IMG/VR virus record: IMGVR_UViG_3300033153_000868
Location: 1 to 64,000 of that record
Origin: a virus
Direction: 5' to 3' (one strand)
DNA length: 64,000 bases
The notes under the pieces are model-generated. The model was not told where the DNA came from and made no database searches. It saw nothing but the letters and a program-made list of their open reading frames with translations. Position 1 is the stretch's first letter, and the number at the start of each line of letters is the position of its first letter. The translations under genes and the position numbers were made by a program. This document shows positions 2,895-18,532 of the stretch, piece by piece.

Positions 2895-2906
2895 ATATAG
2901 CTAACG
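2895..2906 (-). promoter_or_regulatory. CGTTAGCTATAT motif, copy 1
   Basis: Exact 12-mer also at 15634-15645 and 18152-18163; immediately follows the portal stop codon. Confidence 0.45.
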
Positions 2907-5657
2907 CTACTTTTTATCTTTCTCATTTTTGACATCATACTTATTTTTGTTCTCTCTTGCAATTTGAAGTTTAGTATCAGCTATTTGTTTAGATGCAGCA
3001 ATTTTTTCTCTTTCAACGCTCAATCTATTATTTTCTTGTGCAGATTTAACAGCACTTTCTTGGCGTTTAAAATTCATTTGCTCTCTATACTGTGTAGATT
3101 CTCTTATATCCTTCATAGCATCTTGATAATCAGATTGTTGATTTTGATTTAAATCAACCATTGACCCATATCCGGCTGATCTAATTTCAGCTAGTAACAC
3201 ATCATTCTGTCTATCTTTTTCATTTTCAGACATTTCAACTTGAAGTTTTTGTTGTTCTTCTTGTTGCTTAGCTTGAAGTTGCTGCTCTTGCATTTGACGC
3301 TGTTGCTGCATATCTTCTTGTCTTTGCTTCTGGATTCTAATTTCAGAATCTTTAAGTATATCTGATACTTCTGCAATTGAGTCTGCTTTAACTATATTAC
3401 CTAACTCATAAATACTTGCTCCTGAAGTATTATTAGTTAATGCCATTTGCTTTAAGTTTTCTAATATAGCTCTATGATTAGTCTTAGTTGTTGCAAATAC
3501 GTTAAAGTCTCTAAGTAATAAATCCGTACCATTAATTTGGAAATTAACTTTCTCAGCTTCTGTAGATATATATTGTAGTCTAACGCTTGGATTAGTACTA
3601 TAATAATATTGTGCTAAGTCAGTTCTCATTTGATGGATACGTGGCATCAAATGATCAGAGTGTTGTACAAAATACATTTCTGTTTGTGCATATGATTGTT
3701 GCATAGCCTGAACAACACCTGTTGCGGTTTGAGCTGAGACAGCTCCACCTAAACGTTGTGGGTTAATACCTATTGCATCAAAACATTGTTGCTTAAAATA
3801 ATTTGCAAGTTGAATTCTAGACATCAATCTATTAGTTTGCTCCATATTTAGAGTCTGGTAATGATTGAAGTTAGTTGCATTCTCAGTATTTGTAATAGAT
3901 GTATCAAGAGGTAGCATTTGAAAATCTTTCATTGCTACGTATGCTTTTGCATAGTTGTTCTTACCCCAATCCTCACCCATTGAGTGACGTGGTAAAGCAT
4001 TTTGATCAAACATTATTACTGTTCCTAATTCATCTATTAGAATGTCAGCAATTTGGTTATTAACCATATTATATCCAACTTGATATGCTTTCATTAAATC
4101 TACTAAAGAAGTAGATCTAGTATTTCTATCAGAAAATACTCTACCTTCTACAGGTAATTTACACCCATATAATGATGTATCTCCTTTAAACTGAAATGGT
4201 AATCTTCCAGGCTTAGTTCTATTAATACCTAAATAAATAGGATTAATATTATCACCCATAGTAGATTGCCACATAGCTGGTAAGTTTGGTCCAATTTTTA
4301 CACCACCCCATACTTCATTAATCCAAATCCAGTCAACATGTTCACCTTGTAATAAGTTATCTTTTGACTTTTGTTTAAATATAGAAGTATCATATATGGC
4401 CTTTTTGGTTATCTTAAAGGTCTCATCTATAATCTCTTGAGTAACTTCACCATCATCTTCAATTTTAGTAAGATGACCAACTTTTCTTTGTGTTTTCCAA
4501 TATATTGTAGCAACTCTCATTAGGTTACCTTCACCCCACATAGATACATCTTCATTCTCATCTAGTATTTCACTAAGTATATCACCACCTCTAGCGGGAT
4601 CATTCCAATAGTTAGATGTAAATTGTCTGTAACCTAATCCCGGTGCATTGGTATTCCATTCGTGAGATCTTGTTGCATCATAATATGCACCATCATTTTG
4701 ATATCCACTAACTTGATATTGTGCTGATCTAGCAGGATATATCTTTTGTAGAGATTCTAATTGTTTGGAATCCATTAAATAACCATATCTATCTACTACA
4801 TCTGATACAGTCATTAAATCAATTTTACCTGCATAGTTTGAATCTGCAATGTATCTTTGATCAGGAGATTTTTGATAGAAAGTTAATACAGGATTCCAAA
4901 GCTCTACATCATAATCATCTTCTAACATTCTAAAATGCCAAAATTCTCTATCTGCAATAAGCATATCACGGAAACCTCTTTCTTCAAGTTCTTGCATTTT
5001 GAATCTTTCTTCATCTACTGCAAGTTGATGGGATGCCCATTCTTCTACCATACTTCTGTAAGACTTACTAAAAAAGTCTTCAATCTCTGGTAATGATTTT
5101 AAACCTTCTGGAGATAATTGCTTTTGTGCTTCTTCTGATCCAGGGTCAGCACCCATCTCAATCATTTTACGTACTAAGTTTGCTTCTGCATCAGCCAATA
5201 AAGATTCTTCTATTTGAATTTTCTTTTGCTCAAGCATTTCATTGTATGATGCATCATCTACAGCTCTAAACTGTACCTTTGAATATCTTTTGGCAAATTC
5301 TCCTGTTAATACATTTATTACATTAGGTACAATAGGATAAAATTTAAGTTCTAAAGCTGAGTCATTTTCAGCTGTAAGAACGTCCATTAAATCTTTGTAT
5401 TCATTATCTGGTTCAACAATATAATCAGTCTTATCAATTATACCTTTAGCTAACTTATAATTCTTTAAAAGCCTTCTAGAATTTACACGTAGGAATTCAA
5501 TGCCTTGAAGTTCTAACCAATCTAAATTCCATGCAGCCCAATCATCATCCTTTTTTTTATAAGGTAAAAACTGAACCGGTTGTGTTAAGCTAGAAAATGT
5601 AGGCCCGCTTTCAGCTTTTGCCCCATTCTTCATTTGCATTGCATTTAATACTCTCAT
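2907..5657 (-). CDS. Portal protein
   Basis: 916 aa; 'LKFYPIVPNVINVLTGEFAKR' and 'GINPQRLG' motifs, Q-rich coiled-coil C-terminus; directly downstream of terminase. Confidence 0.85.
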   Translation of the reverse strand: MRVLNAMQMKNGAKAESGPTFSSLTQPVQFLPYKKKDDDWAAWNLDWLELQGIEFLRVNSRRLLKNYKLAKGIIDKTDYIVEPDNEYKDLMDVLTAENDSALELKFYPIVPNVINVLTGEFAKRYSKVQFRAVDDASYNEMLEQKKIQIEESLLADAEANLVRKMIEMGADPGSEEAQKQLSPEGLKSLPEIEDFFSKSYRSMVEEWASHQLAVDEERFKMQELEERGFRDMLIADREFWHFRMLEDDYDVELWNPVLTFYQKSPDQRYIADSNYAGKIDLMTVSDVVDRYGYLMDSKQLESLQKIYPARSAQYQVSGYQNDGAYYDATRSHEWNTNAPGLGYRQFTSNYWNDPARGGDILSEILDENEDVSMWGEGNLMRVATIYWKTQRKVGHLTKIEDDGEVTQEIIDETFKITKKAIYDTSIFKQKSKDNLLQGEHVDWIWINEVWGGVKIGPNLPAMWQSTMGDNINPIYLGINRTKPGRLPFQFKGDTSLYGCKLPVEGRVFSDRNTRSTSLVDLMKAYQVGYNMVNNQIADILIDELGTVIMFDQNALPRHSMGEDWGKNNYAKAYVAMKDFQMLPLDTSITNTENATNFNHYQTLNMEQTNRLMSRIQLANYFKQQCFDAIGINPQRLGGAVSAQTATGVVQAMQQSYAQTEMYFVQHSDHLMPRIHQMRTDLAQYYYSTNPSVRLQYISTEAEKVNFQINGTDLLLRDFNVFATTKTNHRAILENLKQMALTNNTSGASIYELGNIVKADSIAEVSDILKDSEIRIQKQRQEDMQQQRQMQEQQLQAKQQEEQQKLQVEMSENEKDRQNDVLLAEIRSAGYGSMVDLNQNQQSDYQDAMKDIRESTQYREQMNFKRQESAVKSAQENNRLSVEREKIAASKQIADTKLQIARENKNKYDVKNEKDKK

Positions 5658-14379: not shown

Positions 14380-14429
14380 AGTATTTTGTTTAGTGAGTAA
14401 CTCTTCTATAAAAACAATATACTAAAATT

Positions 14430-14577
14430 CCCCGTCCTATAAAAATTTTTGAGCCACAACATCCCCCCGTCTACTGTAAAATTGCCCCTACGCCCCACCA
14501 AAAAATTGTGTGTTTGGCACTTTCAAGAGGTATATATGATCTGCTCCCCAACTAAATTTTGCAGTGCGGGTACCCCC
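14430..14577. other. C-run cluster at the divergent late/early boundary (possible terminus/packaging or origin region)
   Basis: C runs at 14430-33, 14463-68, 14485-88, 14493-96, 14546-49, 14573-77; CCCCGTC direct repeat. Confidence 0.4.
14540..14554 (+). repeat. TCTGCTCCC(C/A)AACTA motif, copy 1
   Basis: 14/15 identical to the copies at 14799 and 15401. Confidence 0.7.
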
Positions 14578-14782: not shown

Positions 14783-14813
14783 GGCATTTTTCAATGCCTC
14801 TGCTCCCAAACTA
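14783..14813 (+). promoter_or_regulatory. Hairpin (GGCATT-TTTC-AATGCC) plus TCTGCTCCCAAACTA, copy 2; candidate early promoter
   Basis: Lies about 83 nt upstream of the first plus-strand gene. Confidence 0.45.
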
Positions 14814-14896: not shown

Positions 14897-15358
14897 ATGA
14901 ACAATTTAGTAACAGTACGCAAGAATGAAGACGGAACATTCATCAGTAAAACAAAGAACAAAGATATTGGCTTTGTAATCTATGAACAAAAGGCCGTTGA
15001 ACTTAGAAATGGTTGGTATGCAGATAAATCTTTGTCAGCATTAGTATTAGGCCCAATAGCTTTGCTTGAGTCTATGGACCACTCAAAACCATTGACAGGT
15101 AAGATTATTGTGCGTGAGCAACTTGAGCCATTCAATGATAAGGATTTGACATACAAATTAAAGTATGCTGGTGACTCAAAGGTAGTATGTATGAAAGGTG
15201 ATAAACCTATTTACAGAACTACAGAGTTTACCTCAGACCTTAATGCTCAGTCTACTTTTATTCAGCACACCAATGGTGCTGAGATAAGAGAGGCTAACAA
15301 CTCTACTGTAGCTGTAGAGAGCTTGAATGCGTTTAAGCAGGAAACTGTAGAAGCGTAA
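14897..15358 (+). CDS. Early protein, paralog of 18577-19191
   Basis: Shares 'LKYAGD..(V/I)C...G.PIYR.TE.T.D..AQ...I.HTNG..IR.AN'. Confidence 0.8.
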   Translation: MNNLVTVRKNEDGTFISKTKNKDIGFVIYEQKAVELRNGWYADKSLSALVLGPIALLESMDHSKPLTGKIIVREQLEPFNDKDLTYKLKYAGDSKVVCMKGDKPIYRTTEFTSDLNAQSTFIQHTNGAEIREANNSTVAVESLNAFKQETVEA

Positions 15359-15381
15359 TTGTAACATAGTAGCTTGTGGGT

Positions 15382-15415
15382 AGGCGTGCTTTTCAGCACG
15401 TCTGCTCCCAAACTA
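15382..15415 (+). promoter_or_regulatory. Hairpin (AGGCGTGCT-TTTC-AGCACGTCT) plus TCTGCTCCCAAACTA, copy 3
   Basis: Same TTTC loop and downstream 15-mer as copy 2, with a different stem sequence. Confidence 0.45.
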
Positions 15416-15419
15416 TGTT

Positions 15420-16501
15420 TAGCACTTATAAAAATAGAATTAGTACAGAATGTTACTACTCTCAGACAATAACTACTAACTATTGTTACATAGAGTCAAA
15501 AACAATTGAATTAAGTTATAAAAGTGTGGTAATTTTATTTTTTTTGTGTGTGTCACTCTGAATGTGAGGTCTTATACCCACAAAATACCACCTTTTACCA
15601 CTCTTGTAACTATGAGTGTTACTAATAATATAAATATAGCTAACGTAGCTACAAGTGTAACTATTACACTCAACAATATAACAAGGGTAGTCTTTGTCTC
15701 TTCCTCTATAGGATAAGAGCCATATTACCCGCAATATTAAAACAGGCACATAGATATATTCCTGTATAAACATGGTTGGTCTAATCCAGTGAGTTGCTGG
15801 CGTAAGAGAGAACTTACAGTAATCTAAACTCAATATGCTAATACCATAACTAGAGGAATGTGGATCAACAATACCAATAAGACTACAAGTTATGGTTATT
15901 AGCTTTAATCATCCAGCAATAAAGCAGGGTGTGAAGTAGATAGGGACGTGGATATTAATCCTGAACTTGGTAATGAGTCCTGCAGGATAGTCTCTATCTA
16001 CTTTTAAAACATAATAACTAATAATCCTACCGTATGGATGGAGGTGAATAGCGGAGTGAATATCTCTATTAGTTATATCTTTTAAACCCGTGGCAACGGG
16101 AGTGTTGGGTGTCACTTTGTACACCAAGAGGAGTAGTTTGTCAGCTTAACCTCGTATACGTTAGGGTCAATGTACCTGTAAGGTTTGACAACCGGAAACC
16201 GTGTATTTGACTTGTCTGTTGAATATGTAACAGTCACCGTCAACCGGGATAACGGTCGTAAGAGGTAATCAGGCTCTTTATTTTTAACTCAAGAACAATA
16301 TAAAGATACGTGTCTAGGTAATTCTAGACTAGTGTGACACACATGAAGTGAATTAGGTTAATTACCTATAGTGTCTAATCAACCAATGAGTATGTTGGTA
16401 GGTGTTGGTCTCACCTAATAATCAAATGACTTATTCCTAACTATGAGTATTCATAGGACAGCCATGCCAGTTGTAGTTGGATAAAACAGACTGGCTTTTT
16501 T
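15420..16501 (+). ncRNA. Candidate large structured non-coding RNA or array of structured RNAs
   Basis: About 1.1 kb with no credible CDS; consecutive 10-15 bp stems (15837-51/15888-903; 15934-47/15990-16003; 16014-23/16067-76), many small hairpins and G-U pairs on +; ends in a terminator-like stem plus U-run. Confidence 0.5.
16466..16501 (+). terminator. Possible intrinsic terminator
   Basis: GCCAGT...ACTGGC followed by T6. Confidence 0.45.
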
Positions 16502-16522
16502 AAAATCTAATACTAAAACGTT

Positions 16523-16693
16523 ATGAAAAAACAATTCTTATATTTTATTCTATTACTATTCATAGGTGGACCAATGTTACAATCATGTGGTTCTTCTCGT
16601 AAATGCTCTGTCAAGAAAAGTAAAAAGCATTTTGCAAAGAAGAACTATTGGAAACCTAAAAAGAGACACAAGAGATCCAAATGGGGTCGTTAA
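16523..16693 (+). CDS. Small basic lipoprotein (56 aa)
   Basis: MKKQFLYFILLLFIGGPMLQSCGSSRK...; signal peptide plus lipobox LQSC; K/R-rich tail. Confidence 0.7.
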   Translation: MKKQFLYFILLLFIGGPMLQSCGSSRKCSVKKSKKHFAKKNYWKPKKRHKRSKWGR

Positions 16694-18151: not shown

Positions 18152-18163
18152 CGTTAGCTATAT
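18152..18163 (+). promoter_or_regulatory. CGTTAGCTATAT motif, copy 3
   Basis: Directly after the HTH gene stop; exact match to 2895-2906 and 15634-15645. Confidence 0.45.
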
Positions 18164-18232
18164 TTATGCTTTTTATTTTTGAGTTAAGTCCAAATTCACT
18201 TTATATTTCTGACACAGATTAAGTTATATTAT

Positions 18233-18259: not shown

Positions 18260-18532
18260 ATGATAATACAACTTCCTAATGGCAGAATCATAGAATGTTC
18301 CCTAGAACAGTACCTTTCTCTCTCTGATGAAGAGTACAATGATCTAAATGGCCTTAGCTCCGCATACACAAAGGAAGTGGTTGATCCATGGTATAATAAG
18401 TTTGCAAAAGCAACTGGTAAAGCTGTCTCAGATGAAGCAATAGAAAATATTGAAGAATATGAGCCTGCACTAGATGAGATTGAAGCTTATGAAAAACTGG
18501 AAGACCCGTATTTTCACTCTGATGATAGTTAA
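18260..18532 (+). CDS. Acidic hypothetical protein
   Basis: 90 aa, 'QLPNGRIIECSLEQYLSLSD'. Confidence 0.75.
   Translation: MIIQLPNGRIIECSLEQYLSLSDEEYNDLNGLSSAYTKEVVDPWYNKFAKATGKAVSDEAIENIEEYEPALDEIEAYEKLEDPYFHSDDS

Follow-up and report, generated by a model that had tools for sequence, protein, structure and literature searches.

The stretch without open reading frames (ORFs) at positions 15420-16501 probably consists of independent non-coding RNA cassettes, all in the same orientation, at the hyperplastic beginning of a marine crAss-like phage's early region. In a hyperplastic region, gene content is highly variable between relatives. Comparison with related loci shows that the stretch is split into separate conserved non-coding units, which have been gained, lost and reordered separately among the relatives. 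Their identities across loci show that sequence constraint is stronger on these units than on the protein genes next to them. Two of them, M_d and M_e, are shown by compensatory changes to fold as RNA on the + strand, each ending in a covarying hairpin plus U-run.

The window analyzed here covers the initial 64 kb of an IMG/VR virus record that measures 114,219 bp and has direct terminal repeats. It contains two giant minus-strand ORFs (1925 and 2292 aa), a replication module, and three tRNAs, which are located 3.6 kb downstream of the array (ARAGORN and Rfam scan of the window). At about 30% identity, the helicase of the present phage resembles those of Flavobacterium FpV4-like phages, Cellulophaga phi14:2, and Bacteroides crAss001, and this similarity places the phage as a distant environmental member of the Crassvirales (marine, crAss-like). 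Its host is expected among the Flavobacteriia. crAss-like phages rank among the most abundant known viruses, and an injected giant RNA polymerase drives their early programme. The locus is located at the switch from leftward genes (up to 14379) to rightward early genes. Coordinates of the units and their structural elements are given in Table 1.

Table 1. Units and structural elements of the array, with positions in the window
Feature	Position	Strand	Description
Promoter-like hairpin (loop TTTC) then CTGCTCCCAAACTA	15384-15417	+	Third copy; 5' boundary of the array
M_a	15420-15738	+	Leader unit in nearly all relatives; conserved core 15540-15738
M_a2	15739-15835	+	~100-nt conserved unit with small hairpins
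M_b	15826-15909	+	Long hairpin, stem 15837-15851 with 15888-15903
M_x	15913-16009	+	97-nt hairpin unit, stem 15934-15947 with 15990-16003
M_c	16011-16083	+	~70-nt ultra-conserved unit, outer stem 16014-16023 with 16067-16076
M_d	16084-16288	+	~200-nt multi-hairpin RNA, 26 distinct copies
M_d helices	16087-16100, 16108-16125, 16128-16153 (inner 16135-16146), 16154-16206 (inner 16182-16193)	+	
M_d helices, continued	16208-16242 (inner 16216-16233), 16243-16256, 16260-16278	+	
M_d T-run	16279-16286	+	Directly after the 16260-16278 helix
M_e	16289-16508	+	~210-nt multi-hairpin RNA, 9 helices, 7-8 distinct copies
M_e other helices	16313-16328, 16336-16375 (inner 16353-16369), 16382-16399, 16401-16415, 16441-16456	+	
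M_e terminal hairpin	16466-16495, T6 at 16496-16501	+	7+3-bp stem, covaries
First early ORF past the array	16523-16693	+	56 aa, lipoprotein-like signal peptide, cassette leader AATACTAAAACGTTATG ahead

The region had originally been described as ORF-free, and this description is borne out: no conserved ORF was found in 15359-16522, between the stop of the 153-aa ORF at 15358 and the ATG at 16523. The longest ORF of the gap under translation table 11 (minus strand, 15516-15833, 105 aa) shrinks to 37 aa in an 88%-identical relative, and 1-nt indels occur across the same region in other relatives. Stops and 1-nt indels also break the frames in L018 and L030. When stop codons were recoded (TAG=Q, TGA=W), only a 203-aa minus-strand frame appeared, which has no family match and is not conserved. 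A small peptide in M_a, in the + frame ending at 15716, was likewise rejected for its weak third-position bias, the lack of a shared start, and frame-breaking indels. A PHROGs search of the gap frames gave no match. A frame kept among relatives, with indels in multiples of three, is the mark of a protein-coding gene and was not found in the gap. The flanking and interleaved small ORFs received no annotation from Pfam and PHROGs.

About 40 related marine phage contigs were collected for comparison of the locus. Eight IMG/VR contigs were obtained with the flanking 153-aa protein as a query, and about thirty others, of viral or marine metagenome origin, with DNA patterns taken from the conserved units; when the region was compared by blastn with 50,697 phage records, no match appeared. 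BLAST maps of the related loci delimited seven units. Across these contigs, the units are present or absent independently, their order is variable, and small ORFs are interleaved among them. Every unit except M_a is absent from some relative, and M_a is the sole unit retained in L007. M_x is missing exactly from L001, L002, and L008 and from the 99%-identical L031. The order also changes: M_c and M_d stand ahead of M_b in L017 and L020, M_d ahead of M_a in L018, M_e ahead of M_d in L026 and L038, and M_c ahead of M_a in L057-L059. The ORF cassettes that alternate with the units in relatives encode 39-115 aa without a Pfam or PHROG match, and a tRNA-Asn is found inside the array of L038. Each unit, however the array is composed, occurs in one copy per genome, at a single locus and in a single orientation, co-oriented with the early genes.

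The junctions of the units consist of short T/A-rich linkers or of a conserved ORF leader. The TTTAA-type linkers noticed in the original prediction are real, and such linkers (TTTAAT, TTTTAAAA, CTTTTAAA) coincide with the junctions at which relatives differ. The leader ahead of the first early ORF has counterparts ahead of the small ORF cassettes that replace or separate RNA units in relatives; as a genome-wide signal, the cassette leader TAATACTAAA showed no enrichment.

This mosaic bears directly on the original suggestion of a single large RNA on the scale of GOLLD/ROOL. A fold of all 1082 nt that includes long-range pairs can be computed; however, the order and content of the units vary, ORFs are inserted between them, and neither GOLLD/ROOL nor any other Rfam family was matched. 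Because the units are independent and reordered, with ORFs between them, a single large RNA is excluded. The remains of a decayed protein gene might be sought in a near-open 630-nt minus-strand frame (15516-16148, interrupted by one TGA), but this frame is not conserved, and the units are more conserved than the real genes nearby. Taken as one explanation, a single large RNA or decayed gene remains has a negligible probability. The other option originally offered, a polycistronic array of structured RNA modules on the + strand after a promoter-like element, fits both the mosaic and the covariation of two of the modules.

The units are 82-99% identical where the flanking coding sequences are 65-77% identical. 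Between L048 and the window, for example, identity is 98.6% for M_c, 89.8% for M_d, and 89.3% for M_a, compared with 73.8% for the 153-aa ORF, 77.2% for orf103, and 72.4% for orf194. In L058, M_c is 98.5% identical while the gene upstream is 68% identical.

Every hairpin listed in the original prediction is present where it had been placed. In comparison with dinucleotide shuffles, the 15-bp stem of 15837-15903 has z = -4.06 (0 of 200 shuffles as good) and the 14-bp stem of 15934-16003 has z = -3.30 (1 of 200), whereas the 10-bp A-U stem of 16014-16076 reaches only z = -1.17 (25 of 200). The hairpins at 16087-16100, 16216-16233, 16312-16329, and 16441-16456, together with the terminator-like end at 16466-16501, correspond to covarying helices of M_d and M_e. 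The hairpin at 15654-15670 is present in the window and broken in relatives. A long-range pairing of 15715-15729 with 16264-16278, which would close a domain of about 560 nt, was considered and dropped, as it is not kept in relatives.

The region had also been called hairpin-dense. Its long stems and its covariation agree with this description, but its region-wide energy is unremarkable: in sliding 150-nt windows the mean folding z is about -1, no better than in neighboring coding DNA. The proposed comparison of folding energy with shuffled controls would by itself leave the case undecided: it favors the stems of 15837-15903 and 15934-16003, and favors neither the region as a whole nor M_d, which has z = -0.3. 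Because the overall energy is unexceptional, the case for a hairpin density beyond chance is made by the three long stems and by covariation. For M_d in particular, energy alone is not discriminating, and covariation is what discriminates.

No known family had been recognized in the region originally, and the Rfam search agrees. At gathering score, Rfam 15 matched just the three tRNAs in the window. At E <= 10, the best matches in 15300-16600 scored 16-22 bits against thresholds of 43-114, and none was on the + strand of M_d. By this search, M_d and M_e are classed as new structured RNA families.

For M_d, the 26 distinct copies were aligned with MAFFT, and RNAalifold found 14 pairs with compensatory changes. 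A 5' hairpin was added, a covariance model (R1) was built, and the copies were re-aligned to R1. In the R1 alignment, the structure has 10 helices with 46 pairs in total; paired cells make up 99.5%, and changes on both sides are seen at 16 pairs. None of 500 shuffles reached any of the measures, with the provisos that shuffles ignore phylogeny and that the alignment was fitted to the model. When the partners were slid by 1-3 columns as a control, only 34-42% of cells were paired. The covariation signal is argued to be real because the independent MAFFT result and the slid controls agree. An eleventh, highly variable hairpin lies within helix 5. The loop of helix 9 (16243-16256) is G-GNRA-A, a GNRA tetraloop between G and A, in 25 of the 26 copies, a hint of tertiary structure. 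The 3' end consists of AAGAG/CTCTT, in which 3 of the 5 pairs covary, followed by TTATTTTT. The sequence 5' of M_d differs by locus (M_c, M_b, or an ORF end), and no common motif was found there; no promoter shared between loci was seen immediately ahead of M_d or of M_e. No copies of M_d were found in bacterial genomes.

M_e has fewer copies than M_d, but these are more divergent. Among its 48 pairs, 28 are changed on both sides, whereas shuffles average 12.5 such pairs and none of 500 was as good; this count comes from an alignment partly fitted to the structure and from shuffles that ignore phylogeny. In slid controls, 35-41% of cells were paired and at most 12 pairs showed double changes. 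The terminator stem occurs in the variants GCCAGT/ACTGGC, TCTAGT/ACTAG, and TTCAGT/ACTGAA, and the L056 copy carries two additional terminator pairs changed compensatorily. In bacteria, M_e was found on one 3.2-kb contig of a metagenome-assembled genome (MAG), which resembles a phage fragment.

The covariation among homologs that had been proposed as a check is therefore strong for both M_d (16 pairs) and M_e (28 pairs), and in both the compensatory pairs exceed the controls, as expected of structured RNA. The strand is indicated as well. Pairing in M_d falls from 99.5% on the + strand to 91.1% on the opposite strand, with 103 G-U cells, and in M_e from 91.8% to 82.7%, with 32 G-U cells. This asymmetry confirms the G-U mismatches on the + strand noted originally. 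Both RNAs also carry the 3' hairpin and U-run that form the intrinsic terminator of a small RNA gene.

These terminal elements could be read differently. M_d and M_e may be cis-acting leaders, that is, riboswitch-like or protein-dependent attenuators in which a sensor domain is followed by a terminator gating the next ORF. We regard this as unlikely, although a covarying hairpin with U-run does end each of them, an ORF starts about 15-25 nt past the U-run in most loci, and the multi-helix folds with the GNRA-type loop have an aptamer-like complexity. The downstream position is occupied by at least seven unrelated small ORFs, differing by locus, and in the window, L044, L028/L041/L050, and L026 by a non-coding unit instead of an ORF. 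Two alternative (anti-terminator) pairings were tested and neither covaries; a long helix joining the 5' and 3' parts of M_d equals its shuffles exactly, and a TCTTAAC/GTTAAGA closing stem is just 62% paired. Mutually exclusive terminator and anti-terminator pairings with a consistent regulated gene, the marks of an attenuator, were not found. Independent RNA genes are preferred over riboswitch-like leaders because the downstream ORFs are unrelated and the anti-terminators do not covary.

The other units offer too little variation or too few copies for covariation to be assessed in M_a, M_a2, M_b, and M_c. M_a2 is 91-99% identical in 11 loci, is missing from many others, and is separated from M_a in L018 and L046; it shows one compensatory event, from CAGG/CCTG to GAGG/CCTC, in L018. 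In M_b, the loop segment TCAACAATACCAATAAGAC is invariant and the loop is more conserved than the stem (6 distinct copies); changes in the stem are mainly to G-U on the + strand, with one compensatory pair. M_c is 97-98.6% identical in at least 17 loci whose flanking genes are 68-77% identical. Its hairpin loop shows GGAGGTGA, whose rarity genome-wide is not statistically striking, and the loop of its inner helix exposes GGAGGUGA. The few changes in M_c fit the inner helix (C-G to U-A; U-G/C-G/U-A), although variation is too low for statistics.

M_a appears to differ in kind from the other units: what is conserved is its sequence, not its structure. Its identity is 77-99% over 21 loci, but its consensus structure is weak (-12 kcal/mol, with a single covarying event). 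It holds the motif ATAAATATAGCTAACG and the near-palindrome CTCTTCCTCTATAGGATAAGAG, and one of its 16-mers recurs inverted at 18152-18167; apart from this 16-mer, no antisense targets of the units were found elsewhere in the genome. Protein-binding or DNA-level signals are the more likely content of M_a.

For the stretch as a whole, a DNA-level element at the late/early switch (an origin, a packaging or injection signal, or operators), with hairpins that are incidental or formed in DNA, is improbable. The strand switch and the cumulative GC-skew minimum, where the skew changes sign at the locus, are in keeping with such an element; however, the skew merely tracks gene orientation, and it does so window-wide. 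The conservation of M_a without structure, its near-palindrome and repeated 16-mer, and the motif GTG[AT]CAC, found 3 times here of 8 in 114 kb, also agree with it. On the other side, the compensatory changes and G-U asymmetry of M_d and M_e fit only + strand RNA, and all units but M_a are dispensable and variable in order, unlike an essential cis element. For M_a alone, the DNA-level reading is reasonable.

M_x is known only from the present genome, and its junctions lie in TTTA(A) linkers. An exact M_x 21-mer had no match in IMG/VR, and no second copy was found in the 114-kb genome. This singleton may be a recent insertion, or it may have been lost everywhere else. Its flanking by two TTTAA motifs raises the question of selfish cassettes, mobile or shuffled by recombination (MITE-like or of the T4-type promoter-stem-loop kind), whose conservation would reflect recent spread and among which M_x would be a recent insertion. 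Presence and absence with sharp TTTA(A)-linker junctions would agree with this, as would an M_c that is 98% identical in phages otherwise 68% identical. We nevertheless give it very little credence. The units are single-copy, at one locus and in one orientation, and none is found in bacterial genomes barring the one short phage-like MAG contig. The inverted repeat of M_x is not terminal but begins 21 nt inside the left junction, and there is no multi-copy family, so that M_x does not have the features of a MITE; TTTA(A) at both junctions may just as well represent microhomology at a deletion. Finally, M_d and M_e carry compensatory substitutions, which show that selection has acted on their fold over the long term, beyond any recent transfer.

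The element originally proposed as a candidate early promoter (15382-15415) proves to be the third of three conserved copies of a hairpin plus motif, and its promoter activity remains putative. Copies of the hairpin with CTGCTCCCNAACTA are found on the + strand at about 14541, 14800, and 15401; among related loci of sufficient length to include all three, most preserve their spacing. M_a directly follows the third copy, and no copy is present between units. This arrangement would fit three early promoters with read-through of the array. No consensus is known for the promoters that crAss-like virion RNA polymerases use (bioRxiv 10.1101/2020.03.07.982082). If termination at the hairpin and U-run elements were efficient, the downstream early genes would need another promoter.

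Under the preferred explanation, an array of independent RNA cassettes, transcription would run rightward into the early genes and would start at the third copy of the hairpin plus CTGCTCCCAAACTA, probably a promoter recognized by the injected virion RNA polymerase. Individual RNAs may be delimited and stabilized by the long closing stems, the U/A-rich linkers, and the hairpins that end M_d and M_e; these RNAs would therefore accumulate above the mRNA level, as reported for the early non-coding RNAs of phi14:2. The most likely role for them, held with low certainty, is that of trans-acting accessories, whose invariant loops might bind a host or phage protein or a ribosome component during take-over. 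Like the early small-ORF cassettes alternating with them, the RNA cassettes would be dispensable and exchangeable.

A bolder possibility, which is doubtful at present, is that M_d, M_e, and M_c represent new RNA classes with complex folds, which act in trans on the host and are traded as 'RNA morons'. Their targets might, for example, be a ribosomal, RNA-polymerase, or defence component that is sequestered or reprogrammed. The invariant loop GGAGGUGA of M_c is Shine-Dalgarno-like, and the expected host phylum does not as a rule use Shine-Dalgarno sites. If this possibility were true, RNA cassettes would serve the Crassvirales generally as a currency for early take-over of the host or for counter-defence, and the abundant early RNAs of phi14:2 would gain a function.

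The covariance model of M_d and the alignment of M_e define at least two structured RNA families, besides which there are smaller ultra-conserved units. All of the units are restricted to one genomic niche in a widespread group of marine phages. Genetically, they are like accessory early genes, which suggests that RNA, besides small proteins, may form part of the variable early arsenal.

Among known systems, phi14:2 is the closest for comparison, and to our knowledge it is the only crAss-like phage with a transcriptome. It shares with the present phage a marine Crassvirales affiliation, a giant virion RNA polymerase, and an ORF-free start of the early region of more than 1 kb (1.7 kb in its RefSeq record). 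Its transcription has been measured, whereas the present locus is known from sequence alone. Two intergenic stretches at the start of its early region (g004-g005 and g005-g006) yield very abundant early transcripts in the rightward direction, which exceed most mRNAs and last throughout infection (Drobysheva et al., bioRxiv 10.1101/2020.03.07.982082). The present locus gives these abundant early RNAs a comparative footing. No similarity was found between the present units and the phi14:2 non-coding region by blastn, nhmmer, or the M_d covariance model.

Within the phi14:2 stretch, positions 4031-4500 hold a gene for tmRNA (Rfam 46 bits, E about 1e-16; ARAGORN tag GSSVQKLAMVA), which is absent from the annotation of the record and is not mentioned for the region in the preprint (bioRxiv 10.1101/2020.03.07.982082). 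One of the phi14:2 'lncRNAs' is thus probably a phage tmRNA. With this gene as the positive control for the tmRNA search, ARAGORN detected no tmRNA anywhere in the 114-kb genome of the present phage, the window included, and RF00023 had no match in the window.

GOLLD and ROOL, known from phages and also from bacteria, are single RNAs of about 500-800 nt with complex folds, often near tRNA genes. In contrast, the present units are 70-210 nt in length, independent, and reorderable. Riboswitch and attenuator leaders share with M_d and M_e a multi-helix domain and a hairpin with U-run shortly before an ORF, but here the downstream gene is inconsistent and the alternative pairing is unsupported.

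Phage tRNA clusters, such as the T4 tRNA region, in which a tRNA cluster is accompanied by two stable RNAs, also consist of small structured RNAs in tandem, co-oriented, presumably cut from a common precursor, and variable in content. The present units, however, are not tRNA-like and alternate with protein cassettes. Early regions shuffled by promoter-early stem-loop cassettes are found in T4-type phages, and the early operon of T7 contains RNase III hairpins. The array resembles the former in its small early cassettes, gained, lost, and reordered at short conserved junctions, and the latter in its long intercistronic hairpins within an early polycistronic transcript. It differs from both in that several of its cassettes are themselves covarying structured RNAs, rather than junction signals between ORFs.

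The non-coding content of the array differs among related loci. In one relative (L038), a tRNA-Asn gene with anticodon GTT lies between the homologue of the 153-aa ORF, which precedes the array in the window, and the array unit M_e, so that the RNA array of this relative includes a tRNA gene. Other relatives carry additional non-coding units that are absent from the window. One of these, about 140 nt in length, follows the unit M_d and contains an ACTGAT/ATCAGT hairpin; another is a strong terminator, GCAACAC...GTGTTGC followed by T8, located after the divergent copies of M_d. A clear M_e copy was also found in a contig labelled as Clostridium sp. This contig probably comes from a phage and was assigned to a bacterial MAG during binning, so its label says nothing about the host.

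Several short motifs lie within the array. The 114-kb genome contains eight copies of GTG[AT]CAC. Three of them are found close to where M_a, M_d and M_e begin, and the copies in the latter two units supply the 5' strand of a helix that covaries. The 16-mer ATAAATATAGCTAACG is almost invariant among relatives at its position in M_a, and its inverted copy is intergenic, preceding an ORF at 18260. Together with a third occurrence after a portal-side gene, its exact 12-nt core is present three times, a number reached in none of 100 shuffles. M_c, the most conserved unit of the array, bears in its hairpin loop GGAGGTGA, an 8-nt perfect Shine-Dalgarno-like sequence. The phage is a Bacteroidota phage, and mRNAs of Bacteroidota are generally without such sites. 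Genome-wide, GGAGGTGA is not statistically striking (2 copies against 0.28 expected per strand). The minus strand of the array contains a 630-nt frame broken by one TGA, which is improbable by composition; it was rejected as a gene, being neither conserved in relatives nor matched to any family.

Upstream of the array, the three copies of CTGCTCCC(A/C)AACTA are candidate early promoters. A TTTC-loop hairpin precedes each of the second and third copies, and the three copies appear with identical spacing in most of the related loci that extend over all three sites. A second ORF-free stretch, upstream of the first copy, has a C content unusually high for this genome and repeated CCCC(G) runs, a composition that could reflect a genome-end or packaging signal.

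Positions of features in the window and in compared loci
Feature	Locus	Position	Strand	Remarks
CTGCTCCC(A/C)AACTA, three copies	window	14541-14554, 14800-14813, 15401-15414	+	window sequence
Second ORF-free stretch	window	14380-14540		upstream of first promoter-like copy; window sequence
GTG[AT]CAC	window	15550, 16109, 16334		M_a, M_d, M_e respectively
ATAAATATAGCTAACG	window	15630-15645	+	inside M_a
ATAAATATAGCTAACG, inverted copy	window	18152-18167	-
ATAAATATAGCTAACG, 12-nt core	window	2895-2906	+
GGAGGTGA	window	16036-16047		M_c
630-nt frame	window	15516-16148	-
tRNA-Asn (GTT)	L038	634-715	+	directly between 153-aa-ORF homologue and M_e
Extra unit	L028	about 4020-4170	-	likewise L041, L050, L060
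Extra unit	L026, L027, L045			directly after M_d
M_e copy	L056			JANZQE010000026.1, 3249 nt, labelled MAG: Clostridium sp.
tmRNA	L025 (phi14:2, NC_021806)	4031-4500	+	Rfam RF00023, 46 bits, E about 1e-16; ARAGORN

In the crAss-like Cellulophaga phage phi14:2, a tmRNA gene was detected inside the ORF-free early region, with the ARAGORN tag peptide GSSVQKLAMVA; no tmRNA is annotated in the examined stretch of the RefSeq record. The gene is probably located in the g005-g006 interval, one of two phi14:2 intervals whose transcripts have been described as abundant lncRNAs without a known function (bioRxiv 10.1101/2020.03.07.982082).
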